From positions 1 to 21,246 of the IMG/VR virus record IMGVR_UViG_2534681772_000016: a DNA stretch of 21,246 nt, one strand, 5' to 3'. Under the pieces are notes generated by a model. That model worked only from the letters and a program-made list of their open reading frames with translations. It made no database searches and had not been told where the DNA came from. This stretch comes from a virus. Its lineage: Duplodnaviria > Heunggongvirae > Uroviricota > Caudoviricetes. Positions within the stretch are counted from its first letter, which is position 1. Each line of letters begins with the position of its first letter. Both the position numbers and the translations under genes were made by a program. Shown here piece after piece: positions 1 to 18,341 of the stretch.

Positions 1-261
1 GAAGCCGGATTACTGGCATCAACAGGAAGTACAGGCGACTCGTATGACAACGCGATGGCGGAGAGCATCAATGGTCTTTACAAAGCGGAGGTAATACACC
101 GTAAGAGCTGGAAAAACCGTGCAGAAGTGGAACTGGCCACACTCACGTGGGTGGACTGGTATAACAATCGACGATTGCTGGAAAGGCTGGGCCATACTCC
201 TCCGGCAGAAGCAGAAAAAGCTTATTATGCTTCCATCGGAAACGATGATCTGGCAGCCTGA
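1..261 (+). CDS. IS3-family transposase OrfB (DDE integrase domain), C-terminal fragment
   Basis: The in-frame translation ...[80 protein letters not shown] matches the C-terminus of the OrfB encoded at 17406-18296. It is truncated by the window edge. Confidence 0.9.
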   Translation, partial: EAGLLASTGSTGDSYDNAMAESINGLYKAEVIHRKSWKNRAEVELATLTWVDWYNNRRLLERLGHTPPAEAEKAYYASIGNDDLAA

Positions 262-303
262 GTTCACAGATAAAACACTCTCCAGGAAACCCGGGGCGGT
301 TCA
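1..303 (+). mobile_element. IS629-like (IS3 family) insertion sequence, 3'-terminal 303 bp only; the element continues beyond the window start
   Basis: Positions 1-303 align with the last 303 bp of the complete IS copy at 18036-18338, with about 7 mismatches. The terminal inverted repeat ends in ...cccggggcggttca at 303, after which the sequence diverges from the other copy. Confidence 0.9.
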
Positions 304-659
304 GCTTGATTAGGATGTCTTTCCATCAGTCCGCCACCACAAAGAATCTTTTTTTGCCATAAGGCAGGAGGTTCATCTTTCAGTGGCTGCCAGTGTTATT
401 TCCCCACTTACTGGCTTGGGTTGTTTCGCTGTACTGCCGTAACTGGTTACCCAGAATAAATTCCGGTTTCATTATCAAGCCCACCAGTAGATAGGCTTTG
501 TAATGAACTGGCTCTTATCTCAACGCAGCCCCTTACCGCGCGCCAGATGCTCAATATCAAGCATCAGCAATGAGATGTTTAATCTGGATTCACTCCAGAA
601 GTGATCACCACCCTGTCTACAGAGCCAGATGTGAAGGATGATGAGTAAAATTATCGCTA

Positions 660-1117
660 TCATCGAAGGCATTGCGTCCTGATGTATTCCTGCAGGTAGT
701 TAACCTGCGCGGTTATCCTGTCGATTCCACTTCGGAGACGGTAATAATTGAGTTCAGCATCTGCTGTAAGTCTTGGGCTTTCTCCATCGCCCATGCCGCT
801 GGCTCCGGTCGTTGACTTTGCACAGGTGGCGGCGACCTGCAGGCGCTTACGCCCAGCAGAAACATCAGCACGGAGACTTTCGATAGTCGCGTTAGCATCA
901 GCAAGCTCCTTTGTGTATCTTGCATCGAGCGCAGCAACATCACGCTGACGCATCTGCATGTCAGTAATTGCCACGTCGCCAGCTTCAGTTCTCTGGCATT
1001 TTTGTCGCGCTGGGCTTTGTAGGTAATGGCGTTATCACGGTAATGATTAACAGCCCATGACAGGCCGACGATGATGCAGATAACCAGAGCGGAGATAATC
1101 GCGGTTACTCTGCTCAT
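660..1117 (-). pseudogene. Rz: Rz i-spanin, frameshifted relative to lambda Rz
   Basis: The N-terminal frame reads [47 protein letters not shown] and then leaves the Rz frame. The C-terminal part, ..[26 protein letters not shown].., is in another frame (ORF 660-974). A 1-bp loss around 975-990 is inferred from the remembered lambda Rz sequence. Confidence 0.7.
713..898 (-). CDS. Rz1: Rz1 o-spanin lipoprotein, embedded in the +1 frame of Rz
   Basis: The 61-aa product [42 protein letters not shown]... has a signal peptide, a lipobox-like Cys and a proline-rich segment. The embedded position is the same as lambda Rz1. Confidence 0.6.
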
Positions 1118-1590
1118 ACCTCAATCTCTCTGACCGTTCCGCCTGCTTCTTTGAATTTTGCAATCAGGTTGTCAGCCTTATGCTCGAACTGACCATAACC
1201 AGCGCCCGGCAGTGAAGCCCAGATATTGCTGCAACGGTCGATAGCCTGACGGATATCACCGCGATCAATCATCGGTAAAGCGCCACGCTCTTTAATCTGC
1301 TGCAATGCCACAGTGTCCTGGCTTTTCGGAGAGAAGTCTTTCAGGCCAAGCTGATTACGATAGGCATCCCACCAACGGGAAAGAAGCTGGTAACGTCCGG
1401 CTGCTGTTGATTTGAGTTTGGGGTTTAGCGTGACAAGTTTGCGAGGGTGATCTGAGTAATCAGTGAATAGCTCTCCGCCTACAATGACGTCATAACCATG
1501 ATTTCTGGTTTTCTGCCGTCCGTTATCAGTTCCCTCTGACCACGCCAGCATATCGAGGAACGCCTTACGTTGATTATTGATTTCCACCAT
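1114..1590 (-). CDS. R: Endolysin R (lambda-type lytic transglycosylase)
   Basis: The 158-aa product [39 protein letters not shown]... is near-identical to lambda R as recalled. The start overlaps the S stop and the stop overlaps the Rz start. Confidence 0.95.
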
Positions 1591-1897
1591 CTTCTACTCC
1601 GGCTTTTTTAGCAGCGAAGCGTTTGATAAGCGAACCAATCGAGTCAGTGCCGATGTAGCCGATGAACACGCTCGTTATATAAGCGAGATTGCTACTTAGT
1701 CCGGCGAAGTCGAGAATGTCACGAATGAACCAGGCGATAATGGCGCACATCGTTGCGTCGATTACTGTTTTTGTAAACGCACCGCCATTATATCTGCCGC
1801 GAAGGTACGCCATTGCAAACGCAAGGATTGCCCCGATGCCTTGTTCCTTTGCCGCGAGAATGGCGGCTAACAGGTCATGTTTTTCTGGCATCTTCAT
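1574..1897 (-). CDS. S: Holin S (class I, lambda S107/S105 dual-start motif MKMPEK)
   Basis: The 107-aa product [34 protein letters not shown]... is near-identical to lambda S. It contains hydrophobic transmembrane segments and sits upstream of R. Confidence 0.95.
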
Positions 1898-2302
1898 GTC
1901 TTACCCCCAATAAGGGGATTTGCTCTATTTAATTAGGAATAAGGTCGATTACTGATAGAACAAATCCAGGCTACTGTGTTTAGTAATCAGATTTGTTCGT
2001 GACCGATATGCACGGGCAAAACGGCATGAGGTTGTTAGCGCAGCCTCTTGCCACCCGCTTTCACGAAGGTCATGTGTAGAAGGCCGCAGCATAACTATCA
2101 CTGATGAATTCAGGATAGCCAGTGGCTACGGCTCAGTTTGGGTTGTGCTGTTTCTGGGCGGCGATGACGCCTGTACGCATTTGGTGATCCGGTTCTGCTT
2201 CCGGTATTCGCTTAATTCAGCACAACGGAAAGAGCACTGGCTAACCAGGCGCGCCGACTCTTCACGATTATCGACTCAATGCTCTTACCTGTTGTGCAAA
2301 CA

Positions 2303-2340
2303 AAAAAGCCACCGTTGCAACTTAAGAGTCACTAACGGCA
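2303..2340 (-). terminator. Putative tR'-like intrinsic terminator of the short late leader transcript
   Basis: On the minus strand, the hairpin ugccguu...aacggugg is followed by cuuuuuuguuug. It lies immediately upstream of the lambda-like late leader that runs to S. Confidence 0.4.
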
Positions 2341-2345
2341 GCTTA

Positions 2346-2382
2346 CCCTCTAATTATGGCTAAATGGCTAATTGCATGTCAA
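2346..2382 (-). promoter_or_regulatory. Putative late promoter pR' (-35 TTGACA, 18-bp spacer, -10 CATAAT) overlapping the last codons of Q; likely qut region
   Basis: On the minus strand TTGACA (2377-2382) lies within the final Q codons and CATAAT (2353-2358) lies just after the Q stop. This is the expected position for a Q-dependent late promoter. Confidence 0.45.
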
Positions 2383-2878
2383 GGTTTTTAACAGCAACAT
2401 GCTTAACTTTCTCAACACGTTTACGCATTTTGAAAGCATTTTGCATTGGCTGGTACAAAACAAATAACGACGCTTTCAGGATGTCGTCAATTTCGTTTCT
2501 ACAGGTTGCCAGTGAAGGTTTTCTCCATCCCTCGCCACCACGTCCACACATCTTGCGTGGCTTTGCAGTCGCGTGATAGTAGGATGCAATTGCTCGCTTA
2601 GATGAACCATGAGCGTAGTAGCTGAGGAGGATGCCAAAGGCTTTCTTGTCAATGCACATGACGGAATCGACGACCTGAGAAATCAACATTCCATCATCAT
2701 CATTGCACATTGGCCTTGTCATAACTCTTCCCGGCTCTACGCTCTCCATGAACTTCGCTATTACGCTGCTCATGCGCTTTTCCAGACGACCTGAATAAAC
2801 CCATGCGCCCCACAGTTCAAGCCAGCCATTCAGCCACTCATGCTGCTCTTTGGTGAGGTTTAGTTCTCTTATTCCCAT
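2360..2878 (-). CDS. Q: Late-gene antiterminator Q (non-lambda Q family, similar to phage 21/82 and QuuD types)
   Basis: The 172-aa product contains ..[37 protein letters not shown].. motifs recalled from Q-family antiterminators. It sits between the nin region and the late promoter and lysis genes. Confidence 0.75.
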
Positions 2879-3539
2879 GCGCCTTCTCCCTGTACCTGAA
2901 TCAATGTGAGGTTTCCGCAGAACACTGCGCCGGTATCGATATACATCTGGTTGGCAAACTTGAGTGGTTTCACTGCTGGCGTATGACCAAAGATGAACAT
3001 GTCCGCGCCTTTGATTTCTTTCACGATCCCGTCTTGTGAGTTGCTGATTCGTTCGCGATTCCAGATTACCTGCTGATGATCAACTGGCTTTCCGAACTCG
3101 TATTCGTCACAAGGATAATCGGCGTGGCAGATGACATATTTTTTCCTTTACTCACCAGTTCGATTATTAACGGAAGTTCATCTGCTTTATGGGCAAGAGC
3201 TTTAGCCAGAATTTCTTTGTCGTAATCGAGATTAAAGAACCAGCCACCGCCATTAAGCAGCCAGTGATTAACGTTTCCACGCTCTGATAAGCCATCAATC
3301 ATCATTTGCTCATGGTTTCCACGTACAGCTCTGAACCAGGGGAATGTGATTAATTCCATACATTCGACGTTCTCTGTACCGCGATCAACCAAATCGCCAA
3401 CCGAGATAAGCAGGTCTTTTTTGGTGTCGAATCCTATCGCCTCCAGTTTTTTCATCAGGTTCGTGTAGCATCCGTGCAGATCGCCAACTACCCAAATATT
3501 TCGGTATTTGCTGCCATCAATTCTTTCGTAATAGCGCAT
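2869..3539 (-). pseudogene. ninI: NinI-like Ser/Thr protein phosphatase (calcineurin-like metallophosphatase), frameshifted
   Basis: The N-terminal frame [28 protein letters not shown]...[19 protein letters not shown] matches lambda NinI. The C-terminal part [11 protein letters not shown]...[33 protein letters not shown] is in another frame. The break is at a T6 run (plus strand 3137-3142). Confidence 0.8.
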
Positions 3540-3723
3540 CTCTTTCACTCCATCCGCGATGAACCATAAGAACGTCGTTGACGATGGCGTGCATTTTCCC
3601 GTCTTTATCATCAACGTATTTTCTGACCGTGCCGCGACTACATTTCAGTCTGCGTGCTACTTCTGTCTGGTTTCCGTATGCTTCAACGAGCATGTCTGGA
3701 ATGGTTTTTACTGAGAACGTCAT
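3517..3723 (-). CDS. ninH: NinH
   Basis: The 68-aa product [39 protein letters not shown]... matches lambda NinH as recalled. Confidence 0.9.
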
Positions 3724-4331
3724 GCGGCCTCACTTCTGCTATTTCGCAGGTCTTTGAGTTTCTGCTGATACTCCGCCTTGATCGCCTTGCACTCTTCGAC
3801 AGTCCAGCGATGGCGGTTATGGTTTGATTCGATTTCGTCTACTGCTTCCTGCCCGATGCGATTAATCAGTTCGACGCGATACGGAACGAGATTTCCGCTT
3901 TTGTGCTGGTTGCACACCACGCATTGCTTGTGAATATTGCGTTCATCAAATCGGAGTTGAGGTGCCGCAGCAGTTGTCCGGTAATGTCCGGCATCCCACT
4001 GAGCAGACGTGAGCGTTCCGCACGAGATACATGGTAAGTCGCGGTCTCTTTCTCTGATGAAGGCGTTTACGGCTTGTTGGGCTTGTTTAATCCAGTAACT
4101 GCGGGGCTTTAAGGCGAGTTTTCGAATCTTAAGTTTATCTTTCTGTTTCTGCTCCTCTCGTCGTCGTTTCTTCTCTGCTGCCTTTTCCGCTTTTTCGCGT
4201 TCTTTGCTTCGTCGTTCGAGTGCTATCTTGGTTCCACACTCTGGAGAGCACCACCACTGATTGGCGAATGCAGGGTGAAACCATTCCCGACATTCATCGT
4301 TTTTACATCGTCTTCGCGCTGGTTTAGCCAT
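3720..4331 (-). CDS. ninG: NinG (Rap-family recombination-associated endonuclease)
   Basis: The 203-aa product [35 protein letters not shown]... has the Cys-rich pattern and length of lambda NinG. Confidence 0.9.
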
Positions 4332-4494
4332 CGTCTTCTTCCTCGTGCATCGAGCTATTCGGATCGCTCATCAGTTCTGCGCAGCAGTGCTCACACACGT
4401 GAACTTCCAGCACATGCAGCTTCTGACCGCAGTTAGCGCACGTTAAAGCTCGCTCGACGCTTTCTTGTTCGTAACTTCGATTTGGGTCAATCAC
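4324..4494 (-). CDS. ninF: NinF (GTG start)
   Basis: The 56-aa translation (V)[55 protein letters not shown] matches lambda NinF. It is shorter than the 60-aa cutoff of the ORF track. Confidence 0.8.
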
Positions 4495-4673
4495 CTTGTT
4501 TTCCTCGCACGTTCTCTAAGCCACCGGATATCCCACAGGTGAGCCGTGTAGTTGAAGGTTTTTACGTCAGATTCTTTTGGGATTGGCTTGCGTTTATTTC
4601 TGGAGCGTTTCGTTGGAAGGTATTTGCAGTTTTCACAGATGATGTCGGTGATACTTCGTCGCTGTCGTCTCAT
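4491..4673 (-). CDS. ninE: NinE
   Basis: The internal Met start gives [52 protein letters not shown]..., which matches lambda NinE (60 aa). Confidence 0.85.
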
Positions 4674-5200
4674 GCCGCCCTCCTGACGCGCTGCCCGATT
4701 GCCATCAATGCCGCTTTGGATACAGTAGTAAACATCCGTCGAGGACTGATGAACGGTCGCCAAATCAGCAGCATGGAGCCTTTGCTGTTTCCCTTCTTCT
4801 CCAGCCCTGTCGATGGTTCGATAAAATTAATCCGTCCATCAGTGATAATGCGAACTTCGTCGACACTCTCCAGAGCCTTGCTGAACCATCCGACTGACAT
4901 ATCCTCTGGCACAAGCATCACTACCGTCTGTCGCTGTTGTATACACTGCTCAGCGGCTTTTTCCACCCACGGCCTGATATTGCTGTACGGTGGGTTATTC
5001 CAGATTGCACCGTGGCTTACCCACTCAGAATTGAGCGCGTCGTCGGCCTCAGTTAGCCAGTGAGCACACAGAGCATTTTTGTCGCTCGCTGCCGAATCCA
5101 GCCAGAATCCAAACTCAATATCCAGTGCATCAAAAAGCCAAAGCGGCGTTTGCCAGCAGTCTCTAACTTCTTTTGGTGTTTCTGATTTATGCTTAATCAT
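4670..5200 (-). CDS. Phage Dam-like DNA N6-adenine methyltransferase
   Basis: The product contains [17 protein letters not shown] and NPPYS (the D/N-PP-Y catalytic motif). Its ATG overlaps the ninB stop (ATGA). It occupies the lambda ninC/ninD position. Confidence 0.7.
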
Positions 5201-5649
5201 GCAGCCTTTCCTTTTCGTTGTGACCATTCATACTCTCGCCGGGAGTCATCACTCCACCGCACGTTGCGCTCTGAGCCGAACCAGAACATGATTTCGATAA
5301 GCTCAGTCATGCTGGCCTTTCGCATTTTGCTGGTACGCACACCAAGCATGACAACGCCACCATCGATACCAGGAACACTTCGTTGCTCCAGTTTTTTGGT
5401 CTTAAGCCACAGGGCAGTGAACAGGTCTTTCCAGTCTTCCGGTGCCAGCCGTTGACCATGCCATAGCACCTGACGCGAAACATCGTTCAGCATCGGCCAC
5501 ATACGGTCATTCTGAGCTTTGCTGCGTTTGGGTTCTCTAACGTGGACTTCATGAGGTGACTTGTCGTCGATCGGAAGTGAGAGTATTGCGTCTATGGCGT
5601 TGTTTCTGATTGCTTCGTTGCGAAGCATGTATATTTGCTTCATTGTCAC
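5197..5649 (-). CDS. ninB: NinB (Orf-family recombination mediator)
   Basis: The 150-aa product has ..DVSRQVLWHGQRL..EDWKDLFTA..FGSERNVRWSDD.., matching the lambda NinB pattern. Confidence 0.8.
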   Translation of the reverse strand: MTMKQIYMLRNEAIRNNAIDAILSLPIDDKSPHEVHVREPKRSKAQNDRMWPMLNDVSRQVLWHGQRLAPEDWKDLFTALWLKTKKLEQRSVPGIDGGVVMLGVRTSKMRKASMTELIEIMFWFGSERNVRWSDDSRREYEWSQRKGKAA

Positions 5650-5675
5650 CTCAACTCACAAAACGCCACGCCATT

Positions 5676-5831
5676 TTATAGGCTCCATCCATCCCATTTT
5701 CTCTCACCAAAAATATGCCTGTGCCATTCTTCCCGCTGCCGTCTCCATAGTTCCATCATGTCTGGCTGGTTCTTTTCTCGCATTTTTCGAATCTGCTCAA
5801 GGATGAACTCTATTTGCTGCTGATTTGTCAT
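5676..5831 (-). CDS. Hypothetical small protein (51 aa)
   Basis: The ORF MTNQQQIEFILEQIRKMREKNQPDMMELWRRQREEWHRHIFGERKWDGWSL is preceded by GAAGGAG at suitable spacing. No family was recognised. Confidence 0.35.
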   Translation of the reverse strand: MTNQQQIEFILEQIRKMREKNQPDMMELWRRQREEWHRHIFGERKWDGWSL

Positions 5832-5841
5832 GCTCACTCCT

Positions 5842-6057
5842 TCACTTTAAATTCAGGTTCCGGATTATTCTGTTGCGCTGAAACTCATTGTTGAGTTTGA
5901 ACAACCGCCGAAGAACACGGTCACGCGGATAGCGTCGTGCGGCAGGTGAATGCTCATACAACTCATCAATCGGCAAACTGGACGATGAACGATACTGATA
6001 CCAACGCACCAACTCTTCACGAAAATTAGCCCTGACAAGTTCAGCTATCGTACTCAT
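5842..6057 (-). CDS. Hypothetical protein (71 aa), in the position of lambda ren
   Basis: The ORF has an upstream GGAGG RBS. It lies between the tR2-like terminator and ninB. No family was recognised. Confidence 0.45.
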   Translation of the reverse strand: MSTIAELVRANFREELVRWYQYRSSSSLPIDELYEHSPAARRYPRDRVLRRLFKLNNEFQRNRIIRNLNLK

Positions 6058-6082
6058 TTCTTAAAGCCTCCAATTCCCTCTC

Positions 6083-6118
6083 CCCCAAATAAAAAGGCCT
6101 GCGATTACCAGCAGGCCT
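6083..6118 (-). terminator. Intrinsic terminator downstream of the replication genes (tR2-like position)
   Basis: On the minus strand, the perfect 8-bp stem aggccugc/gcaggccu with an 8-nt loop is followed by uuuuuauuug. It lies 30 bp after the helicase stop. Confidence 0.6.
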
Positions 6119-6147
6119 GTTACAAGCTCAGTGATGTAGATGGTCAT

Positions 6148-6915
6148 TTAATACTCCGTCACGTTTTCCTGTCGCCACGCCTCGTCATATTCCGACTTCG
6201 GCATATTGGCGATGTAGCTATATGGCGATCCTGATTCAAGTTGCAGGAACTGGTGCGATTGCTCGTCAAGGAACAACGGGACACCACCTTCCCAACCTTC
6301 GCCGTTACGTTGTTTTTCAAGCATCAAAACAGATGCCGGAGATGCCAGTAGCTGTTCGTCCTTCTCTGACATCTTTTCACCACTCTGAACTCTCTGTAAC
6401 GCTCTCTCGCGAGCCTTGTTACGCCAGATGATGAAAAGATTGTCTGTCAGGTCTGTTATCGCTCCAGAGCCTTTTACGTCCATTTTCCCGGTTGGTTTTT
6501 CTTCGCTGTCTCCTTTTCGCGAGTGAGTAACGAGAATGACGTGGGAGTTTGTTTTGTTTTTGAAGTCGCAAATCGAGTCAACAAACGCCTTCTGCCCGTT
6601 ATAGTCATCGTCGCCTATGCCACATTTCATCAGGCTGTCGATGATGAATAACTGGATCCCGTATCGGCGGCGAGCGTAGTCGAATATTTCGATCAGCCTG
6701 TCGGCTTTCGCCGTTCCGGTCAGACCAAACACCCAAAGTCTCTCGTCATAAAATTTAAATGCAGAGTCAATTTCCAGCACTGGCGGCATCTTGCAGCACG
6801 TCGCCTGACGGGTAAGTCGCTTAAGGAGAATGCCTGGCTTCAGCTCAAGTGACGCGATGCAGGTCTTCACACCCTGACGCATTGCCTCAAGTGCCATATG
6901 CCCGACAACCTCGGT
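6148..6915 (-). CDS. Replicative primase-helicase, C-extein: RecA-like helicase core of the T7 gp4/DnaB type
   Basis: After the intein terminal HN the product reads TEVVGHMALEAMRQ... It has a Walker B-like IQLFIIDSLMK and the motifs HVILVTHSRK and GSGAITDLTDNLFIIWR. Confidence 0.7.
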   Translation of the reverse strand, partial: TEVVGHMALEAMRQGVKTCIASLELKPGILLKRLTRQATCCKMPPVLEIDSAFKFYDERLWVFGLTGTAKADRLIEIFDYARRRYGIQLFIIDSLMKCGIGDDDYNGQKAFVDSICDFKNKTNSHVILVTHSRKGDSEEKPTGKMDVKGSGAITDLTDNLFIIWRNKARERALQRVQSGEKMSEKDEQLLASPASVLMLEKQRNGEGWEGGVPLFLDEQSHQFLQLESGSPYSYIANMPKSEYDEAWRQENVTEY

Positions 6916-10160: not shown

Positions 10161-10170
10161 AATGACTCCT

Positions 10171-10545: not shown

Positions 10546-10588
10546 CCCGCATTTCGGCGGGAATGAGGACCATGACTGTTAAAGAGCA
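10546..10588 (-). promoter_or_regulatory. nutR (boxA TGCTCTTTAACA-like and a boxB hairpin) between cro and cII
   Basis: On the minus strand, gctctttaaca is followed by the hairpin cccgc-cgaaat-gcggg. The boxB is identical to the one in nutL at 11701-11716. Confidence 0.65.
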
Positions 10589-10594
10589 ATTTGC

Positions 10595-10780
10595 TTATGC
10601 CGCTTTGCGGTAAGCGCTTTCTTGATACTTCAGGGCGCCAGCTGTAACGACTTCCAGTCGATAGGCGTCTTTCTCTGGGATGACTTCCTTCCACTGAGAG
10701 ACTGCTGCGTCGCTAATGCCTAACGCTTTAGCTACAGCACGCTGGGTTCCGAAGTGGTCGATAACATCTTTCTTGTACAT
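10595..10780 (-). CDS. cro: Cro repressor, P22 type
   Basis: The 61-aa product MYKKDVIDHFGTQRAVAKALGISDAAVSQWKEVIPEKDAYRLEVVTAGALKYQESAYRKAA matches P22 Cro as recalled. Confidence 0.9.
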   Translation of the reverse strand: MYKKDVIDHFGTQRAVAKALGISDAAVSQWKEVIPEKDAYRLEVVTAGALKYQESAYRKAA

Positions 10781-10794
10781 AGACTCGCTCCGAA

Positions 10795-10860
10795 ATTAAA
10801 GAACACTTAAATTATCCACTAAAGGAATCTTAAGTCAAGTTTATTTAAGATGTCTTAACT
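10795..10860. promoter_or_regulatory. Right operator OR1-OR2-OR3 with the divergent promoters PR (towards cro) and PRM (towards c2)
   Basis: Three 18-bp sites fit the P22 operator pattern ANTNAAGNNNNCTTNANT: attaaagaacacttaaat (10795-10812), actaaaggaatcttaagt (10818-10835) and atttaagatgtcttaact (10843-10860). Confidence 0.75.
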
Positions 10861-11511
10861 ATGAAAACTCAATTGATGGGAGAGCGCATTCGCGCTCGGA
10901 GAAAAGAACTCAAGATCAGGCAGGCCGCACTTGGAAAGATGGTCGGCGTGTCTAATGTTGCCATATCTCAGTGGGAACGCTCTGAGACAGAGCCAAATGG
11001 AGAGAATCTTCTCGCCCTGGCTAATGCGTTGAAGTGTTCCCCTGACTATCTGATGAAAGGAGAGGAAAGTCTTTCAAACATTGCCTATCACAGTAGGCAT
11101 GATCCAAGAGGGTCATACCCTCTGATTAGCTGGGTGAGCGCAGGATGCTGGATGGAAGCTGTAGAACCATATCATAAGCGTGCAATAGATAACTGGTACG
11201 ATACAACCGTAGACTGTTCAGAAGATTCGTTTTGGTTGGACGTGAAGGGAGACTCAATGACGGCTCCGGCCGGTCTCAGTATCCCTGAAGGAATGATAAT
11301 ACTCGTCGATCCTGAAGTAGAGCCGCGTAACGGGAAACTGGTAGTTGCAAAGCTCGAAGGAGAAAACGAGGCAACTTTCAAGAAGTTAGTTATTGATGCA
11401 GGCAGGAAGTTTCTAAAACCACTTAACCCACAATATCCGATGATCGAGATCAACGGAAACTGCAAAATCATCGGCGTAGTTGTCGATGCAAAACTAGCAA
11501 ACCTTCCATAA
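10861..11511 (+). CDS. c2: Prophage repressor, P22 C2 type (HTH plus LexA-like S24 peptidase domain)
   Basis: The 216-aa product MKTQLMGERIRARRKELKIRQAALGKMVGVSNVAISQWERSETEPNGENL... ends in ..GDSMTAPAGLSIPEGMIILVDPE..KLANLP, the autocleavage-domain motifs. Confidence 0.9.
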   Translation: MKTQLMGERIRARRKELKIRQAALGKMVGVSNVAISQWERSETEPNGENLLALANALKCSPDYLMKGEESLSNIAYHSRHDPRGSYPLISWVSAGCWMEAVEPYHKRAIDNWYDTTVDCSEDSFWLDVKGDSMTAPAGLSIPEGMIILVDPEVEPRNGKLVVAKLEGENEATFKKLVIDAGRKFLKPLNPQYPMIEINGNCKIIGVVVDAKLANLP

Positions 11512-11533
11512 GGGGGCATTCGCCCCTTTTTTT
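11512..11533 (+). terminator. Intrinsic terminator after c2
   Basis: The hairpin ggggc-attc-gcccc is followed by T7, directly after the c2 stop codon. Confidence 0.7.
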
Positions 11534-11575
11534 ATTTCCTTTAAAAATCAAAGCCAAACTTAAGTTACGAAAGAA

Positions 11576-11630
11576 AATTTAAGTTTTCTTCAAAAATACT
11601 CTTGACCATTAATTAAAGAGATCTTAAATT
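11576..11630 (+). promoter_or_regulatory. Left operator and PL promoter region (OL sites, -35 TTGACC, weak -10)
   Basis: The site attaaagagatcttaaat (11612-11629) fits the P22 operator pattern. A second half-site pair lies at about 11576-11595. TTGACC at 11602-11607 has a TAAATT-like -10 element 17 bp downstream. Confidence 0.55.
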
Positions 11631-11676
11631 TAAGCCATCAGCAGGACGCTGGTAGCCAAACGGAACAGATTGGCAG

Positions 11677-11716
11677 GCTCTTTAACATTGATGGGATTGT
11701 CCCGCCGAAATGCGGG
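11677..11716 (+). promoter_or_regulatory. nutL (boxA gctctttaaca plus a boxB hairpin)
   Basis: The boxA-like sequence at 11677-11687 is followed by the hairpin cccgc-cgaaat-gcggg at 11701-11716, upstream of the N-like gene. Confidence 0.65.
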
Positions 11717-11824
11717 AACCAAAGAGTAGTTGGCTTTGGGGTGACGTGAAGTGCAGCTGCACGACGGCAACCGGAAGATAAGCACCCGGCGCGTCACCGC
11801 CAAAGTCAATCATCGGAGGTCAAC

Positions 11825-12097
11825 ATGACAGTAGTCATTACATATCTGGCTGACGATAACGCCAGAAATCGCCGCAGAGCACGCAGACAGGCTCAACGTG
11901 AACAGGCAATGCAAGAGCAGCGACTGGCGCGAAAAATTGCGCTAAAGCTCTCTGGTTGCGTCAGAGCAGACAAAGCAGCATCACTAGGAAGCCTTTGCTG
12001 CAAGAAGGCAGATGAATGCAGTGGAAGTATTTGCCTGCCAAACGTAGCCGTTTACGCGGCAGGCTACCGGAAATCAAAACAATTGACGGCGAGGTAA
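11825..12097 (+). CDS. N: N-like transcription antiterminator (arginine-rich motif)
   Basis: The N-terminal arginine-rich motif is DNARNRRRARRQAQREQA. The C-terminus LPNVAVYAAGYRKSKQLTAR resembles the P22 gene 24/N family as recalled. The gene lies downstream of nutL. Confidence 0.7.
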   Translation: MTVVITYLADDNARNRRRARRQAQREQAMQEQRLARKIALKLSGCVRADKAASLGSLCCKKADECSGSICLPNVAVYAAGYRKSKQLTAR

Positions 12098-12099
12098 TT

Positions 12100-12462
12100 A
12101 TGGGTCAGGAAGAAAAATATGAGCTTAAAAAGCTCATTGAAGAAGACGGCATAGAAGAAATTGCAGCATTAACAACAGCTATAAAGAATATTAGGTATGC
12201 GCTAAATGCGCTTATCTCCTCATGCGACAAAAATAGCAGGGAATTTTTGATACTTGGCGCAGCTCTAGGAATAGTTGATGCGGCAACGCTTCACCTAATT
12301 ACTCATGACGATATTCTTATTGAGCCGTATGAAACATTACTGCTTGTCAGGCAAAAAATGGCTGATGCCGCAGCAAATGGAGACCTTCAACTTTACATCG
12401 ACTTAAGGAAAGTATTAAGGCGAATGGTCAGAACTGAAGGAGATATCCCCCTGACAAAATAA
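12100..12462 (+). CDS. Hypothetical protein (120 aa), first early-left accessory gene after N
   Basis: The ORF MGQEEKYELKKLIEEDGIEEIAALTTAIKNIRYALNAL... has a GAGG RBS and starts directly after the N stop. No family was recognised. Confidence 0.5.
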   Translation: MGQEEKYELKKLIEEDGIEEIAALTTAIKNIRYALNALISSCDKNSREFLILGAALGIVDAATLHLITHDDILIEPYETLLLVRQKMADAAANGDLQLYIDLRKVLRRMVRTEGDIPLTK

Positions 12463-12562
12463 GGGGGTAAGAGGATTTTACTATTTTTCTCGCTGTAGGG
12501 GTACACGAGAACCACCGAGCCTGATGTGGTTAAAAGACAGGCATACTAATAAACACTGCACT

Positions 12563-12590
12563 GTGTATTCATTCCAACGAGTGAATACAC
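12563..12590 (+). other. Perfect 9-bp inverted repeat hairpin in a 236-bp intergenic spacer
   Basis: gtgtattca-ttccaacgag-tgaatacac. No T-run follows it, so it is not a typical intrinsic terminator. Confidence 0.4.
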
Positions 12591-12652
12591 GGAGCAATGT
12601 CGCTCGTAACTAAACAGGAGCCGACTTGTTCTGATTATTGGAAATCTTCTTT

Positions 12653-12680
12653 GCCCTCCAGTGTGAGGGCGATTTTTTAT
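12653..12680 (+). terminator. Intrinsic terminator (tL-type, presumably read through by N-modified polymerase)
   Basis: The hairpin gccctc-cagtgt-gagggc is followed by gattttttat, 19 bp upstream of the next ATG. Confidence 0.7.
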
Positions 12681-12698
12681 CTGTGAGGATATGAACAG

Positions 12699-13067
12699 AT
12701 GTCAAACATCAAAAAATACATCATTGATTACGACTGGAAAGCATCAATAGAAATTGAAATCGACCATGACGTAATGACAGAGGAAAAACTTCACCAGATT
12801 AATAATTTCTGGTCAGACTCTGAATACCGACTCAATAAACACGGCTCTGTATTAAATGCTGTATTAATCATGCTGGCGCAACATGCTCTGCTTATAGCAA
12901 TTTCAAGCGACTTAAATGCATATGGTGTTGTGTGTGAGTTCGACTGGAATGATGGAAATGGTCAGGAAGGATGGCCTCCAATGGATGGTAGCGAAGGAAT
13001 AAGAATTACCGATATCGATACATCAGGAATATTTGATTCAGATGATATGACTATCAAAGCCGCCTGA
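12699..13067 (+). CDS. Hypothetical strongly acidic protein (122 aa)
   Basis: The ORF MSNIKKYIIDYDWKASIEIEIDHDVMTEEKLHQINNFWSDSEY...DIDTSGIFDSDDMTIKAA has a large excess of Asp and Glu over Lys and Arg. No family was recognised. Confidence 0.55.
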   Translation: MSNIKKYIIDYDWKASIEIEIDHDVMTEEKLHQINNFWSDSEYRLNKHGSVLNAVLIMLAQHALLIAISSDLNAYGVVCEFDWNDGNGQEGWPPMDGSEGIRITDIDTSGIFDSDDMTIKAA

Positions 13068-13142
13068 GCGCGGCGTTACCGCATACCAATAACGCTTCAC
13101 TCGAGGCGTTTTCGTTATGCAATCAAATATAAGGAGTTACCC

Positions 13143-13277
13143 ATGATGCACTTTCAGCTCGCGGGTAGCGGCGTCATGTCCGCTTTCTACCCGCACGAAT
13201 CTGAATTATCACGCCGAGTTAAACAATTAATCAGAGCAGCAAAGAAACAACTGGAGGCGTTATGCGCAATGAAATAG
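13143..13277 (+). CDS. cIII: CIII-like protein (putative FtsH inhibitor), 44 aa
   Basis: The product MMHFQLAGSGVMSAFYPHESELSRRVKQLIRAAKKQLEALCAMK has a central amphipathic helix resembling the lambda CIII core PSESLLERITRKLRDGWKRLIDIL. An AAGGAG RBS precedes it. Confidence 0.5.
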   Translation: MMHFQLAGSGVMSAFYPHESELSRRVKQLIRAAKKQLEALCAMK

Positions 13278-13413
13278 CCATCAATCACCAGATGCTTCGT
13301 GCTGCACAGAACAAAGCAGTAATAGCCAGATTTATTGGTGATTCAAAAATGTGGCTTGAAGCAAATAAAGCGATGAAATCAGCTATCAACCTTCCGTGGT
13401 ATCGCAGGAAATG
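13261..13413 (+). CDS. Hypothetical small protein (50 aa)
   Basis: The ORF MRNEIAINHQMLRAAQNKAVIARFIGDSKMWLEANKAMKSAINLPWYRRK has a GGAGG RBS and overlaps the end of the cIII-like ORF. Confidence 0.35.
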
Positions 13414-13487
13414 AGTTTTACAGATAACTGGTCAGACGAAGAATTCATTCGTCAGATGAAAGAATTAATCGGTAACGAAGGAGATAT

Positions 13488-13661
13488 TCATGTCACTTGC
13501 AACCACAGTGAAGGAGAGCAAGTTACAGAGACGCATGTACACGCAGAAAGCTCTCTGGTATCGCCATAATGGTGACCGCGAAGGAATGCGGGTATGCCTT
13601 AATTTGTCCCGAGTCGAAGTATTAAATCAGCGTTATTTCCTTGGGCCGTGTCCATTCTGAG
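13488..13661 (+). CDS. Hypothetical small protein (57 aa), in the position of kil
   Basis: The ORF MSLATTVKESKLQRRMYTQKALWYRHNGDREGMRVCLNLSRVEVLNQRYFLGPCPF has an AAGGAG RBS. An alternative overlapping ORF at 13411-13569 cannot be excluded. Confidence 0.35.
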
Positions 13662-13668
13662 GTGAATT

Positions 13669-14376
13669 ATGGATTTGAACAAATTCGATGAGCCATTCAG
13701 CCCTGAAGATATCGAATGGCGAATACAGCAAAGCGGTAAAACACGCGATGGCAAAGTGTGGGCTATGGTGCTGGCTTATGTCACGAACCGGGCAATCATG
13801 AAACGCCTGGACGATGTTTGCGGCAAAGCAGGATGGCGCAATGAATACCGCGATATTCCCAACAACGGCGGAGTTGAATGCGGCATATCAATCAAGATTG
13901 ATTCCGAATGGGTAACCAAATGGGATGCTGCTGAAAACACGCAGGTAGAAGCCGTCAAAGGTGGTCGTTCCGGTGCAATGAAGCGTGCTGCCGTTCAATG
14001 GGGAATCGGTCGGTATCTGTATAACCTTGAGGAAGGTTTCGCACAAACATCTCTCGATAAAAAGCAGGGGTGGCACAGGGCAAAACTGAAGGATGGAACA
14101 GGATTTTACTGGCTTCCTCCATCGCTGCCGGGATGGGCAATCCCAGCATCAGATAACAAACCATCACCAGAAAATACCAACCAGAAATCTCCATCGGTTG
14201 ACTGCGAACAAATCCTGAAAGACTTCAGCGATTATGCGTCAACAGAAACTGACAAGAAAAAACTCATCGAGCGTTATCAGCGTGACTGGCAATTAATGGC
14301 TGGCAACGAGGAGGCGCAGGCTAAATGCGTTCAGGTAATGAACATCAGAGTTAACGAACTAAAACAGGCGGCATAA
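13669..14376 (+). CDS. Single-strand annealing protein, Rad52/Sak-like family recombinase
   Basis: The motif GGRSGAMKRAAVQWGIGRYLYNL is typical of Rad52-family annealing proteins. The gene sits immediately upstream of ssb in the recombination module. Confidence 0.65.
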   Translation: MDLNKFDEPFSPEDIEWRIQQSGKTRDGKVWAMVLAYVTNRAIMKRLDDVCGKAGWRNEYRDIPNNGGVECGISIKIDSEWVTKWDAAENTQVEAVKGGRSGAMKRAAVQWGIGRYLYNLEEGFAQTSLDKKQGWHRAKLKDGTGFYWLPPSLPGWAIPASDNKPSPENTNQKSPSVDCEQILKDFSDYASTETDKKKLIERYQRDWQLMAGNEEAQAKCVQVMNIRVNELKQAA

Positions 14377-14883
14377 ATGGCAAGCAGAGGCGTAAATAAG
14401 GTGATTATCCTTGGTCGGGTAGGACAAGACCCGGAAGTTCGATACTCACCATCAGGAACAGCGTTCGCTAACCTGACAATAGCCACGTCAGAACAATGGC
14501 GAGATAAAAATACTGGCGAGCAAAAGGAATTGACTGAATGGCATCGTGTTGCTGTATCCGGGAAACTGGCTGAGGTCGTTGGGCGGTATGTGAAAAAAGG
14601 TGATCAGATTTATTTCGAGGGAATGCTGAGAACCAGAAAGTGGAAAGACCAGTCAGGGCAAGACCGTTACACAACCGAGGTTCATGTCGGAATTAATGGC
14701 GTGATGCAAATGCTTGGCGGCATTGGCGACAGCAAACAACAAGCAGCCAGCAGGCAATCACAGAAGCCACAGCAGCAATCATCACCAGCACAACACAACG
14801 AACCTCCGATGGATTTTGACGACGATATACCCTTTGCACCAGTAACTCTCCCCTTCCCTCGTCACGCTATTCACGCAATTTAA
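14377..14883 (+). CDS. ssb: Single-stranded DNA-binding protein with a 15-aa extension beyond the DDDIPF tip
   Basis: OB-fold N-terminus [44 protein letters not shown]...; Gln/Pro-rich linker; ..[11 protein letters not shown] followed by [15 protein letters not shown]. Confidence 0.9.
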
Positions 14884-14896
14884 TCAGGAGAAAAAC

Positions 14897-15193
14897 ATGC
14901 CAGCGCCTTTGTATGGTGCGGATGACGCGCGCCGCTGTTCCGGCAATTCCGTATCGGAGGTGCTGGATAAATTCAGAAAAAACTACGATCGGATAATGTC
15001 GCTACCGCAGGAAACGAAAGAGGAAAAGGAATTTCGCCACTGTATATGGCTTGCAGAGAAAGAAGAGCGCGAGCGAATTTACCAGACATCAATCCGACCA
15101 TTCCGCAAAGCCACATATACCCACTTCTCTGAATATATCGACCCGCGCCTGCGTAATTACCGCTCACGCTATGGCGCTATCAGTAATGACTGA
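14897..15193 (+). CDS. Hypothetical protein (98 aa)
   Basis: The ORF MPAPLYGADDARRCSGNSVSEVLDKFRKNYDRIMSLPQETKEEKEF... has a GGAG RBS and lies in the accessory region after ssb. Confidence 0.5.
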   Translation: MPAPLYGADDARRCSGNSVSEVLDKFRKNYDRIMSLPQETKEEKEFRHCIWLAEKEERERIYQTSIRPFRKATYTHFSEYIDPRLRNYRSRYGAISND

Positions 15194-15203
15194 GGAATTA
15201 ACA

Positions 15204-15494
15204 ATGAAAACAATGAAGCTAAACATCGACCTCGGAAAATACGTTATTACCGGAACCAAACACGACCTGATTCTTAGCGAAAGAGGAATTATCAAAGAAG
15301 GCGAGAATGCAGGGAAAGAAACACTAAGCCGTATCGGTTATTACAGCAAGTTTGAGCATCTGGTCAAAGAGTTATGCAACCGTGAAATCCTGTTATCTCA
15401 GGCGCAGACGCTACAGGATATTCAGCAGCATATCGAGACTTTAGGTGTATCACTTAGCATGGCTATTGACCAGTTCGTGGAGAGTAAATCATGA
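15204..15494 (+). CDS. Hypothetical protein (96 aa)
   Basis: The [44 protein letters not shown]... has GAGG 8 nt upstream of the ATG. Confidence 0.5.
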
Positions 15495-15655
15495 GAGGAC
15501 TTGCATACAATCCCGGCATTCTTCCGGCAGAAATGATTATTCGCCAACGCGTAAAGCCAATGCCATCGAGAGAAGAATTGCTTAAGAGAAATTCTTTTCC
15601 ATCAGTGAATCAAAACAAATATCTGAATGCGATGTTGCGGAGTGGGAAGAAATGA
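15491..15655 (+). CDS. Hypothetical small protein (54 aa)
   Basis: The [57 protein letters not shown] overlaps both neighbouring genes by ATGA. Confidence 0.35.
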
Positions 15656-16026
15656 AACAAATGACACTAATTGAGATGGATGGATTTCTGAAAGGTAAAT
15701 GCATCCCACGAGATTTAAAGGTTAACGAAACAAACGCTGAATATCTTGTCCGTAAGTTCGGTGAACTTGAATCAAAACTCAACGAGCAGCGTGAATATTA
15801 CGAAGGTGTTATCTCTGATGGGAGTAAGCGTATAGCAGAGTTACAAAGTGGTTCTCAGGTACAAAAGTTAGTTGAAGCAATCATTGTTGCGATAGAAAAC
15901 GAACAGGAACGTCTTTTTGATGAAGATTACCTAATGGATTCGAAAGAATGCATTGACGTAATTCGTGAAGAAGTAAAGCGATGGAATGATTCCCGCGCCG
16001 CTGGCATTCGCATCAAAGGAGAGTGA
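15652..16026 (+). CDS. Hypothetical protein (124 aa)
   Basis: The [49 protein letters not shown]... is translationally coupled within the operon. Confidence 0.5.
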
Positions 16027-16027
16027 G

Positions 16028-16213
16028 ATGAAGCGAGAAATTATCAATTTCATCAATCCAGGTAACTGCTGCCCTGGTCATGACAAATACCCATGTGACA
16101 AATACAAAAATAGGCGTTCAGTTCGCCAACGCGCACTCGGTATTAAAAAAGAGCATCGACATGTGAGAAGAACCGTCCGTCAGGAATTGCTATTAAATAT
16201 TGGTGAGGACTAA
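16028..16213 (+). CDS. Hypothetical Cys-rich small basic protein (61 aa)
   Basis: The ORF MKREIINFINPGNCCPGHDKYPCDKYKNRRSVRQRALGIKKEHRHVRRTV... carries the cluster CCPGH..C. Confidence 0.4.
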   Translation: MKREIINFINPGNCCPGHDKYPCDKYKNRRSVRQRALGIKKEHRHVRRTVRQELLLNIGED

Positions 16214-16216
16214 CAC

Positions 16217-17028
16217 ATGACCACTATTACCAGAGAACAAGCTCTGAAAATTATTGAGGCAGCCGATGAGGTTATTAGTGCGCTTGCCGGAACTAACGAG
16301 GATGTTCACCCTGGTAGCGATAACATGCTACGTCTGTGGGATGACCTGAATGACCGTTACGCGCCGCCGGAAGTTGTGCGCGAACTGGCGCGGATTGCAC
16401 TGGCATCGCTGGAAGCAGAGCCGGTGGCTTATATTTTCAAACATCCGGCCGGGAAATTATTCTGGGCTTTAACGGATGAAAGCAATAAAGAGCAAGCGGA
16501 CGTTATTCCTGTTTATGCTGCCGCGCCTGCGTCGGTTGTGCCGGATAATGCATCAGAGCCTCTTGCTTATGCTTACAAAGAGCTTACGCCTGAGATTATG
16601 CGCAACCATTTAGCTGTATTCGAGCGATATGGAATAGCCCCAAACGATAGCTCTACCACAATTCAGGCACTGCGAATCGCGCTGGATGGCATAGAGCGGA
16701 GCGACGCCATGCTTCATGGTGCCGAAACTGTAAGCCAAACTTACAAGTTGCCTCCCCTGTCATCCAGCGAAGTAAACGACGCGGCATGGAAATTACACAA
16801 CATGCTGACTGAACACGGCCTGCTAAATGGGCGTCAGTTCAACAATCTGAAAGGTTGCTTCTATGAGGCATTAAAGGTCGCAATGCGCAACTATCCGGCA
16901 ACTCCGGATAGTTGGATAAGCTGTAGTGAGCGAATGCCGGATACCAAAACAGCCGTTCTTGTTGCCGTGGAGTTTGACAGGAAAGGTGACTGGCGAATGA
17001 AATGGGCGACTTACATCCCGGGGCATCC
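16217..17028 (+). pseudogene. DUF551-like phage protein, 5' portion, interrupted by IS629 after codon 270
   Basis: The ORF runs from the prophage into the IS at 17029. Its C-terminal region ..WISCSERMPDTKTAVLVAVEFDRKGDWRMKWATYIPGHP resembles the DUF551 pattern as recalled. The continuation is found in frame after the IS. Confidence 0.7.
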
Positions 17029-17082
17029 TGAACCGCCCCGGGAATCCTGGAGACTAAACTCCCTGAGAAAGAGGTAAACAGG

Positions 17083-17409
17083 ATGACTAAAAATACTCGT
17101 TTTTCCCCCGAAGTCCGTCAGAGGGCGATTCGTATGGTTCTGGAAAGTCAGGGCGAATATGACTCACAGTGGGCGGCAATTTGTTCCATTGCCCCAAAGA
17201 TTGACTGTACACCGGAGACTCTGCGTGTCTGGGTACGCCAGCATGAGCGGGATACCGGAGGCGGTGATGGCGGGCTCACCACCGCTGAACGTCAGCGTCT
17301 GAAAGAGCTGGAACGTGAAAATCGTGAACTGCGCCGCAGTAACGATATCCTTCGCCAGGCTTCCGCTTATTTTGCGAAGGCGGAGTTCGACCGCCTCTGG
17401 AAAAAGTGA
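17083..17409 (+). CDS. IS3-family transposase OrfA (HTH)
   Basis: The 108-aa product [40 protein letters not shown]... has a leucine-zipper-like C-terminus and matches IS629/IS1203-type OrfA as recalled. Confidence 0.9.
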
Positions 17410-18296
17410 TGCCACTGCTGGATAAGCTGCGTAAGCTGTACGGGGTCGGACCGGTATGCAGTGAACTACATATTGCCCCGTCAACGTATTACCACTGTCA
17501 GCAACAGCGACATCATCCTGATAAACGCAGTGCCCGTGCGCAGCGCGATGACTGGCTGAAGAAAGAGATACTGCGCGTATACGATGGGAATCATCAGGTA
17601 TACGGTGTGCGTAAAGTCTGGCGTCAGTTGTTACGGGAAGGAATCAGGGTAGCCAGATGTACAGTGGCGCGCCTCATGGCGGTTATGGGACTTGCCGGTG
17701 TTCTCCGGGGTAAAAAGGTCCGCACTACCGTCAGCCGGAAAGCCGTTGCCGCAGGCGACCGCGTAAACCGTCAGTTTGTGGCAGAACGTCCTGACCAGTT
17801 GTGGGTGGCTGATTTTACTTACGTCAGCACATGGCAGGGGGTCGTCTATGTGGCGTTCATCATTGATGTGTTTGCCGGATACATCGTGGGGTGGCGGGTC
17901 TCATCGTCTATGGAAACGACATTCGTGCTGGATGCTCTGGAGCAGGCGTTATGGGCCCGTCGACCGTCCGGCACAGTCCATCACAGTGATAAAGGTTCTC
18001 AGTATGTATCGCTGGCCTACACACAGCGGCTTAAGGAAGCCGGATTACTGGCATCAACAGGAAGTACTGGTGACTCGTATGACAACGCGATGGCGGAGAG
18101 CATCAATGGCCTTTACAAAGCGGAGGTAATACACCGTAAGAGCTGGAAAAACCGGACAGAAGTGGAGCTGGCCACACTCACGTGGGTGGACTGGTATAAC
18201 AATCGACGATTGCTGGGAAGGCTGGGCCATACTCCTCCGGCAGAAGCAGAAAAAGCTTATTATGCTTCCATCGGAAACGATGATCTGGCAGCCTGA
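17406..18296 (+). CDS. IS3-family transposase OrfB (DDE domain), normally made as an OrfAB fusion by -1 frameshifting
   Basis: The 296-aa product has ..WVADFTYV.. and ..HHSDKGSQY.. and ..[15 protein letters not shown].. (the DDE triad context). It overlaps orfA in the -1 frame at an A-rich site. Confidence 0.9.
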
Positions 18297-18341
18297 GTTC
18301 ACAGATAAAACACTCTCCAGGAAACCCGGGGCGGTTCATCC

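Follow-up and report, generated by a model that had tools for sequence, protein, structure and literature searches.

The prophage half in the window

The window, that is, the whole stretch of 21,246 bp analysed here, corresponds to positions 3-21248 of the draft contig AIHG01000020.1 of Escherichia coli DEC13B, as identified by exact-protein look-ups, and its proteins have DEC13B GenBank accessions. It covers one half, the early and lysis part, of an argW-integrated prophage. At its left edge lie the right-terminal 303 bp of an insertion sequence (IS) of the IS629 type, here called IS(b) (1-303, plus strand). These are followed by a stretch separating the IS from Rz (304-659) and by the lysis cassette (660-1897), which comprises Rz/Rz1 (660-1117), endolysin (1114-1590) and holin (1574-1897), all on the minus strand. 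Further to the right, a complete IS629-type element, IS(d) (17029-18338, plus strand), interrupts a DUF551 gene. The last prophage gene at this end encodes a TorI-type excisionase (19269-19469, plus strand; from the annotation of a 100% identical stretch in strain TW10590). Beyond it, the 15-bp att core CTGCAGGGGACACCA (19543-19557, plus strand), equal to the 3' end of tRNA-Arg (argW), forms the right prophage boundary; a tRNA scan found no tRNA gene within the window. The gene at the far right is cscB (sucrose permease; 19999-21246, minus strand), which is chromosomal and not an integrase.

The argW prophage of TW10590 (NZ_CP035850.1, approximately 2,743,500-2,789,900) serves as an intact relative. 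It shares with the DEC13B prophage 99.9% nucleotide identity over 304-21246, the argW site next to cscB, the gene order and the frameshift in Rz. All three indels between the two fall within homopolymer runs, consistent with error-prone 454 data. In TW10590 the prophage is free of the DEC13B IS insertions and of the intein; it has an inverted IS copy of its own, of the 'B-type' also represented by IS(d), between the Rad52-like and ssb genes, and an unrelated IS3-family element in the Wedge1 gene. A 47-mer taken across the intein frameshift matched a different prophage of another isolate. In TW10590 intS adjoins tRNA-Arg, and on DEC13B contig AIHG01000019.1 (contig 19) it adjoins yfdC. With the argW att core at the torI end and intS at the other, the prophage has a recombination module of the KplE1/CPS-53 type; argW itself was seen beside intS in TW10590.

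Between Rz and IS(b), the sequence-only reading had described about 355 bp of non-coding DNA. The length stands (356 bp, with Rz ending at 660) but the stretch, which is identical in TW10590, holds a conserved 50-amino-acid ORF (520-672, minus strand) annotated by RefSeq in relatives.

The complete element

IS(d) is a 1310-bp member of the IS3 family. Its 25-nt terminal inverted repeats, TGAACCGCCCCGGGAATCCTGGAGA on the left (17029-17053) and TCTCCAGGAAACCCGGGGCGGTTCA on the right (18314-18338), are imperfect (92% complementary) and have TG...CA ends. It carries orfA (17083-17409, plus strand; Pfam HTH_Tnp_1) and orfB (17406-18296, plus strand; Pfam HTH_21, rve and rve_3, the DDE domain). The orfB gene is in the -1 frame, and a programmed frameshift is predicted at the slippery A-run GGAAAAAG in the orfA/orfB overlap; an ALIL frameshift pseudoknot is found at 17364-17480 (Rfam, 116 bits). 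The element is flanked by a TCC target duplication (17026-17028 and 18339-18341), and the site is empty in TW10590. The 5' part of the DUF551 gene (16217-17028, plus strand; EHX60191.1, ECDEC13B_2414) is separated by the insertion from a 3' remainder at about 18342-18423, and the ORF as called continues into the IS to 17077.

The length, TG...CA repeats, HTH-containing orfA, DDE-containing orfB, ALIL pseudoknot and 3-bp duplication are all shared with IS629/IS1203. In E. coli O157:H7 prophages and in Shigella these elements occur in multiple copies, and the O157 literature describes IS629 as usually inserting into prophage genes. IS3-family members transpose by a copy-out/paste-in route that duplicates 3 bp of target. 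IS(d) is 100% identical to copies on plasmids and chromosomes of enterotoxigenic E. coli (for example, H10407 and TW10590), for which RefSeq gives only the generic label 'IS3 family transposase'. Against genomic copies, its identity is 95.3% to one from O157:H7 that is labelled IS1203 and 95.6% to a sister-variant copy whose 3' end matches one labelled IS629; the ISfinder convention for isoforms is approximately 95% nucleotide identity or more to the reference sequence. 'IS629-like' would thus be a fair name, with borderline identity.

The left copy and its partner junction

What is seen of IS(b) in the window corresponds to IS positions 1008-1310 and includes the C-terminus of OrfB (1-261, plus strand) and the right inverted repeat (279-303, plus strand). 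These 303 bp are 100% identical to many E. coli copies, one of which is labelled 'IS629 family' in RefSeq. Only 2 nt of the draft contig precede the window, so that the element is cut at position 1 by a break in the assembly and not by a biological event.

The right end of IS(b) is followed by GCT (304-306). A simple insertion predicts a left junction in which GTGGAGTGGTTGCT is followed by TGAACCGCCCCGG, and this has exactly one match in IMG/VR, on a 5,832-bp contig (L021) of IMG taxon 2534681772; the window junctions themselves had no match there. L021 contains, in order, an IS right end, GAA, a fragment of a DUF2213 head gene, MuF, portal, terL, terS, Gp49, GCT (5424-5426) and 406 bp of an IS left end, and has only 2 mismatches with TW10590 in 5,211 bp. 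Its GCT and IS left end are the exact partner of the IS right end and GCT in the window; on the Gp49 side the junction sequence is GTGGAGTGGTTGCTTGAACCGCC. The left end and target duplication of this IS, which the sequence-only reading had proposed to look for upstream, are thus GCT and an IS end abutting Gp49. In TW10590 the two flanks are contiguous (L001 20000/20001), the site is empty and is followed after 23 bp by the start codon of Gp49. Because the GCT duplications match and the flanks are contiguous in TW10590, IS(b) lacks the features of a deletion endpoint. It appears highly likely, at the confidence that we give to the explanation as a whole, that IS(b) is a complete element which inserted simply, 23 bp upstream of the Gp49 start and without deletion.

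The contig name of L021 conveys only a taxon number, and its probable assignment to DEC13B is made through the complementary junction and exact protein identity. IS(b) is read here from its two ends, about 600 bp in its middle being absent from the assembled contigs examined.

Comparison of the two copies

The two copies align without gaps and on the same strand, as direct repeats (1-303 with 18036-18338), with mismatches at window positions 33, 36, 75, 120, 121, 132 and 182; similarity is lost beyond 304/18339. The OrfB C-termini differ at two residues (A/T and E/G), and the interval between the copies (304-17028) is 16,725 bp. The direct orientation, the 7 differences in 303 positions and the two OrfB changes given by the sequence-only reading are borne out by this alignment, and the copies are not identical.

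All seven differences are alleles of a widespread sister variant and not random changes. The IS left end on L021 also departs from the B-type, at three positions and with alleles of the same sister variant, and the left copy would combine both IS lineages as a mosaic. Where a contig stops within a repeat, reads from further IS copies could have entered its terminal sequence, and we considered whether the seven differences are a consensus of such collapsed reads. The 303 bp do lie at a contig end within a multi-copy repeat, all seven alleles belong to a common variant, and the homopolymer indels noted above are as in error-prone 454 data. The contig runs only about one read length past unique flank, however, where reads should be anchored, and the sister-variant alleles recur at the other end of the element on L021. 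We regard a collapsed consensus as unlikely.

Independent insertion of different IS variants, as originally proposed, is supported by this comparison, because each copy has its own 3-bp duplication (TCC for IS(d), GCT for IS(b)), both sites are empty in TW10590 and the left copy carries sister-variant alleles. A composite transposon, in which the two copies and the 16.7 kb between them moved as a unit, would also place direct IS copies on either side of the segment. Such a unit is scarcely credible here: the separate GCT/GCT and TCC/TCC duplications indicate two single-element insertions into a pre-existing prophage, and the uninterrupted form of that prophage exists in TW10590. No 19-kb IS-bracketed unit was seen at another locus.

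The late module and further insertions

According to the sequence-only reading, the expected bor, cos and structural region had been replaced by the left copy. This is supported neither by the partner junction, where the IS left end adjoins Gp49, terS, terL, portal and MuF, nor by the DEC13B proteins, which include late gene products. A second contig of the same IMG isolate (L022) runs from an SLT fragment, by way of capsid, to the remaining part of the DUF2213 gene, with IS ends on both sides. The terS, MuF, terL, Gp49 and capsid proteins encoded between them by L021 and L022 are identical to those of TW10590, where the late module is single-copy. The terS, MuF and capsid proteins of these contigs have DEC13B GenBank accessions, and the exact terS and the exact MuF sequences are each on record on only three contigs.

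The alternative that IS insertion or rearrangement removed bor, cos, terminase and structural genes, so that the prophage ends at the IS, has in its favour that the window holds only IS to the left of 304. In addition, the end of contig 19 is likewise formed by an IS left end, oriented as in the window, and a single IS bridging the two contigs is geometrically possible. Nevertheless, this reading is highly improbable. A partner junction with matching GCT and late genes exists; the DEC13B terS, MuF, capsid, Ant and baseplate proteins are identical to those of TW10590; the contig 19 flank is TTC and not GCT; its IS end has B-type sequence throughout, from which the left end of IS(b) departs at three positions; and TW10590, although intact, also lacks bor and cos. 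A single hybrid IS (B-type on the left, sister variant on the right) bridging contigs 19 and 20 was searched for and is absent in complete genomes, the best matches being pure B-type (99.5%). The hybrid became needless once L021 had been found.

At least five IS629-type insertions are present in the DEC13B prophage, and none of the five is in that of TW10590. Two are IS(b), upstream of Gp49, and IS(d), in the DUF551 gene. A third lies just upstream of a baseplate gene (sheath initiator), a fourth interrupts the SLT gene in inverted orientation, and a fifth, with a GAA/GAA target duplication, interrupts the DUF2213 head gene. Four of the five are in one orientation, within a prophage of about 46 kb. 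On the baseplate side the IS right end would be followed by TTCTGTATGTCATG; the predicted right junction of this IS had no match in IMG/VR, and for the inverted IS in the SLT gene a generic right-junction pattern matched only unrelated isolates there. The module was thus seen except for the stretch from the baseplate-assembly gene to the SLT fragment (at least one contig). The junctions of the left IS, of the DUF551 IS and of the contig 19 IS each occur in 0 of 5,426 complete E. coli genomes.

Every module contig end that was seen is an IS end. This bears on a mixed culture, in which most cells would carry an IS-IS deletion joining contigs 19 and 20 while a minority keeps the late module, hence the small contigs. 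Direct-orientation IS copies do flank the module, which is split over several small contigs with locus tags of about 4783-4816, compared with 2380-2414 for the flanks. The additional insertions fully explain this fragmentation, however, and the contigs seem to be numbered in the order of their genes in K-12, which suggests that they were ordered against a reference. We consider a mixed culture very unlikely. That directly repeated IS copies are substrates for deletion, as the sequence-only reading pointed out, is true in principle, but neither such a deletion nor these insertions were found in any of the 5,426 complete genomes.

Layout of the late region in related phages

The expectation of bor and cos after Rz was derived from lambda, which shares with this prophage a Q antiterminator controlling a cassette of holin, endolysin and Rz/Rz1. 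The late layout of lambda is Rz, bor, cos, Nu1, A. The TW10590 prophage, in contrast, has no bor and no Nu1/A-type terminase; its order after Rz is the 50-amino-acid ORF, Gp49, terS (Terminase_2) and terL (Terminase_6), then portal, head and tail genes. Bor and cos/Nu1-A do not directly follow Rz there, and L021 carries the same Gp49, terS and terL genes.

The early and lysis region resembles that of P22, Sf6 and Sf101. In the P22-like Shigella phages Sf101 and Sf6 and coliphage IME10, the early, nin and lysis regions are 96-98% identical over 42-50% of 304-17028, and the region downstream of Rz contains small ORFs and no gene annotated as bor. In P22-like phages the lysis genes are followed by a small terminase and headful packaging, not cos. 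The DEC13B late module has no close relative among isolated phages. It specifies a virion with a contractile tail (sheath, baseplate J and members of Pfam families that take their names from phages E217, XM1 and Pam3), unlike the P22 podovirus.

Proposed explanation

In our preferred explanation, both copies would be ordinary complete IS629-type elements that inserted separately. IS(b) would have entered the late operon, with the lysis cassette on one side of it and the packaging genes on the other, and a 454-type assembler would have halted about one read length inside the multi-copy repeat, so that the element looks partial; its left end and the late genes would then have been placed on a separate 5.8-kb contig. 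IS(d) would have inserted independently into the DUF551 gene. The prophage would therefore be disabled by insertions and not by loss of its late region. Judged on the sequences compared here, we hold this combination (a complete IS(b) split between contigs, retained late genes and a separate IS(d)) to be very probable. A probable further effect of IS(b) is that Q-dependent late transcription does not extend into the genes for packaging and the head.

The insertions within about 46 kb could reflect a recent local transposition burst, through local hopping or through selection for silencing of an active prophage, instead of random genome-wide insertion. We put this forward tentatively and think it rather less likely than otherwise.

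Two cautions follow for annotation: where a window begins or ends in part of a repeat, the cause may be a break in a draft assembly, and lambda gene order is the wrong expectation for some lambdoid prophages. The finding itself is ordinary, accumulation of IS629-type elements in prophages being already known. It adds one more case in which such elements accumulate in a prophage and disable it, here in head, tail and accessory genes and in the late operon. The density of insertions, which were seen only in the DEC13B prophage, is mildly interesting with regard to the speed of prophage inactivation.

IS copies in the window

The two IS629-type copies recognized as direct and divergent in the sequence-only reading are real. 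Positions 1-303 and 18036-18338 form a gapless same-strand alignment with seven mismatches; the OrfB products differ by two amino acids (A/T and E/G) and similarity stops at 304/18339. The full copy (17029-18338, plus strand; 1310 bp) has terminal inverted repeats of 25 nt (TG...CA) and is bracketed by TCC on both flanks. Its orfA encodes an HTH_Tnp_1 domain and its orfB, which overlaps orfA at a GGAAAAAG run, HTH_21 and rve domains. It also includes an ALIL frameshift pseudoknot (Rfam, 116 bits). IS3-family members transpose by a copy-out/paste-in pathway via a circular intermediate; their OrfAB transposase is produced by -1 frameshifting.

This full 'B-type' copy is 100% identical to copies on ETEC plasmids and chromosomes, approximately 95.3% identical to the IS1203 copies of O157:H7 and 95.6% identical to a sister variant (a second IS629-type lineage) in NCTC86. 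The left copy was read from its first 406 bp and last 303 bp, the middle being unassembled. The final 303 bp, which are 100% identical to many copies, carry sister-variant alleles at all seven of the seven differing positions, and the first 406 bp are B-like except for sister-variant alleles at positions 33, 378 and 405. Since sister-variant alleles occur at both ends and the left part is otherwise B-like, the left copy appears to be a mosaic of the two lineages. Judged from these alleles, it is clearly not a fresh copy of the full element, and the earlier proposal that different variants inserted independently is well founded.

The closest complete genome, ETEC TW10590 (99.9% identity across window positions 304-21246), includes an inverted B-type copy between the Rad52-like and ssb genes (33107-34416 of the TW10590 stretch L001, equivalent to window 14429-14436). 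This inverted prophage copy shares 99.6% identity with the full copy in the window and has sister-variant alleles at two of the five differences. This pattern suggests that gene conversion among IS629-type copies is frequent.

Exact-protein matching places the window at positions 3-21248 of AIHG01000020.1 (247,264 bp; assembly GCA_000250335.2) of E. coli DEC13B: the Rz fragment (EHX60163.1) and a DUF551-IS fusion protein unique to the window (EHX60191.1; ECDEC13B_2414) both carry accessions of that strain. The 'partial' left IS therefore makes up the final 305 bp of a draft contig whose assembly stopped about one read length inside the repeat.

Prophage identity and gene order

In the TW10590 annotation, the final prophage gene at the right end encodes a TorI-type excisionase (19269-19469). 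The prophage boundary is a 15-bp att core (19543-19557) corresponding to the 3' end of the tRNA-Arg gene argW. The 415-aa ORF at 19999-21246 was considered as an integrase and rejected, as it is annotated in TW10590 as cscB (sucrose permease). The integrase gene, intS, lies at the opposite end, beside argW, and is adjoined by an O-antigen-type acyltransferase gene. KplE1/CPS-53 likewise has its torI-type excisionase and intS at opposite ends.

The prophage is a hybrid, with a P22/Sf6-like early and lysis region (resembling the P22-like phages Sf101, IME10 and Sf6) and a contractile-tail/baseplate late module. The late half has no close relative among isolated phages, the best being a Vibrio phage (70% identity over 2.9 kb), and its Pfam families are named for phages E217, XM1, Pam3 and Pa193 (TW10590 stretches L001 1-20000 and L006 1-8800; DEC13B stretches L015, L021 and L022). 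In the intact TW10590 prophage, Rz is followed on its 3' side by a 50-aa ORF, a Gp49-family gene, terS, terL, portal, head genes and the contractile-tail/baseplate module; neither bor nor a lambda-type terminase occurs downstream of Rz. The expectation of bor and cos at this position was a lambda-based assumption. The label 'anti-CBASS protein Acb1 family' that RefSeq gives the gene at the portal position appears to be an artefact of naming.

Sequence to the left of the first IS

Both IS sites of the window are empty in TW10590, the left one reading ...gtggagtggtt/gcttgatta..., 23 bp upstream of the Gp49 start. DEC13B retains the late genes. Proteins 100% identical to those of TW10590 are found under DEC13B accessions: terS (EHX54182.1), MuF (EHX54185.1), major capsid (EHX54424.1; ECDEC13B_4783), Ant (EHX54059.1), baseplate (EHX54020.1; ECDEC13B_4816) and tail fibre (EHX61069.1; ECDEC13B_2380). 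Exact matches to the terS and MuF sequences are recorded on just three contigs each, and the 20-kb late module is present as a single copy in TW10590.

A second DEC13B contig, AIHG01000019.1, carries yfdC, intS, the tail-fibre gene, baseplate J and the sheath-initiator gene; its terminal 356 bp are an IS left end, oriented as in the window and flanked by TTC. This end raised the possibility of a deletion, with contigs 19 and 20 joined by a single hybrid IS. The junction predicted for a simple insertion (TW10590 flank, GCT, IS left end) was scanned against IMG/VR and gave exactly one match, the 5,832-bp contig L021, which makes the hybrid IS unnecessary. In L021, 219 bp of IS right end and GAA precede the TW10590-type late region, which runs from within DUF2213 through MuF, portal, terL, terS and Gp49; GCT and an IS left end of 406 bp follow. 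The contig differs from TW10590 by two mismatches in 5,211 bp and encodes the exact TW10590 terS, terL, MuF and Gp49 sequences, terS and MuF being those with DEC13B accessions. At the window junction the IS right end is followed by GCTTGATTA. The two junctions are complementary and thus define one IS element with a GCT duplication. On this junction sequence the left IS reads as a simple insertion with no sequence lost; together with the late genes under DEC13B accessions, this refutes the earlier view that it had replaced the late region. A sub-population of DEC13B could in principle carry a deletion, though this is unlikely.

A contig from the same isolate as L021, L022 (8,857 bp), spans the genes from an SLT fragment to the other DUF2213 fragment, capsid included. 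It is bounded on one side by an inverted IS left end and on the other by the partner junction of the DUF2213 insertion (duplication GAA). Both contigs are linked to DEC13B by junction fit and protein identity, not by name.

Reconstructed map and insertion density

In window orientation, the map begins with argW, intS, acyltransferase, tail fibre, Wedge1, baseplate J, sheath initiator, TTC and a forward IS. Unseen contig(s) would follow with baseplate, Ant, P63C and an SLT fragment, then an inverted IS, the SLT fragment through capsid to a DUF2213 fragment, a forward IS between GAA repeats, the other DUF2213 fragment, MuF, portal, terL, terS and Gp49. Next come the left IS of the window (forward, between GCT repeats), the 50-aa ORF, Rz, R, S, Q, nin genes, replication genes, cI/cro and recombination genes, and finally a DUF551 fragment, the full IS (forward, between TCC repeats), the other DUF551 fragment, torI, attR and cscB.

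There are at least five IS629-type insertions in this one prophage of about 46 kb, four sharing one orientation (IS sequence at L015 1-356; L021 1-219 and 5427-5832; L022 1-338 and 8507-8857; window 1-303 and 17029-18338). Three DEC13B IS junctions were searched for and found in none of 5,426 complete E. coli genomes, and none of the DEC13B insertions occurs in the 99.9%-identical TW10590 prophage. The insertions may represent a local burst.

Sequence quality and the primase-helicase intein

All three indels between the DEC13B draft and TW10590 fall in homopolymer runs, as does a 1-nt gap relative to the intact intein allele, which fits 454-type data. At about 3139 (T6, T7 in TW10590) a Ser/Thr phosphatase gene is broken into ORFs of 157 and 51 aa; another indel (about 11527; T7, T8 in TW10590) lies within a terminator-like T-run. 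The Logan contig L004 (SRR096910_327) is 100% identical to window 339-3144 and ends near homopolymers (the A/T7 run near 350 and the T6/T7 run near 3139); SRR096910 is probably the 454 read set for DEC13B. Rz (660-1117, minus strand) is also frameshifted (ORFs 713-1117 and 660-974), probably genuinely, because the finished TW10590 genome has the same frameshift.

The toprim/primase-helicase gene (6148-9053) includes a 342-codon intein with two LAGLIDADG motifs (6916-7940, minus strand), inserted in the P-loop (GHGK/T); the TW10590 gene has no intein. Its first residue is Ala, not Cys or Ser, its end is ...ATHN/T, a Trp follows the block-B His (GDHLW) and block F has a Cys, features which together resemble the class-3 'WCT' type. 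Class-3 'WCT' inteins are known in mycobacteriophage DnaB. At 7254-7258 the window has an A5 run where intact alleles have A6, and this difference splits the gene into ORFs of 629 and 339 aa; the intact 968-aa allele is found in 79 complete genomes, including O157:H7 WS4202 (WP_023439153.1). That all draft indels, including this frameshift, are homopolymeric suggests 454 errors, but an unrelated IMG/VR prophage (L026) has the A5 allele too.

Consequences for the prophage

This is a known kind of element, with known behaviour, within a draft assembly. Direct IS repeats could mediate deletions, of which none is documented. The left IS, within the late operon and antisense to its transcription, would be expected to have a polar effect on the packaging and head genes. 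Disruption of the DUF2213 and SLT genes by insertion would be enough alone to block virion formation.
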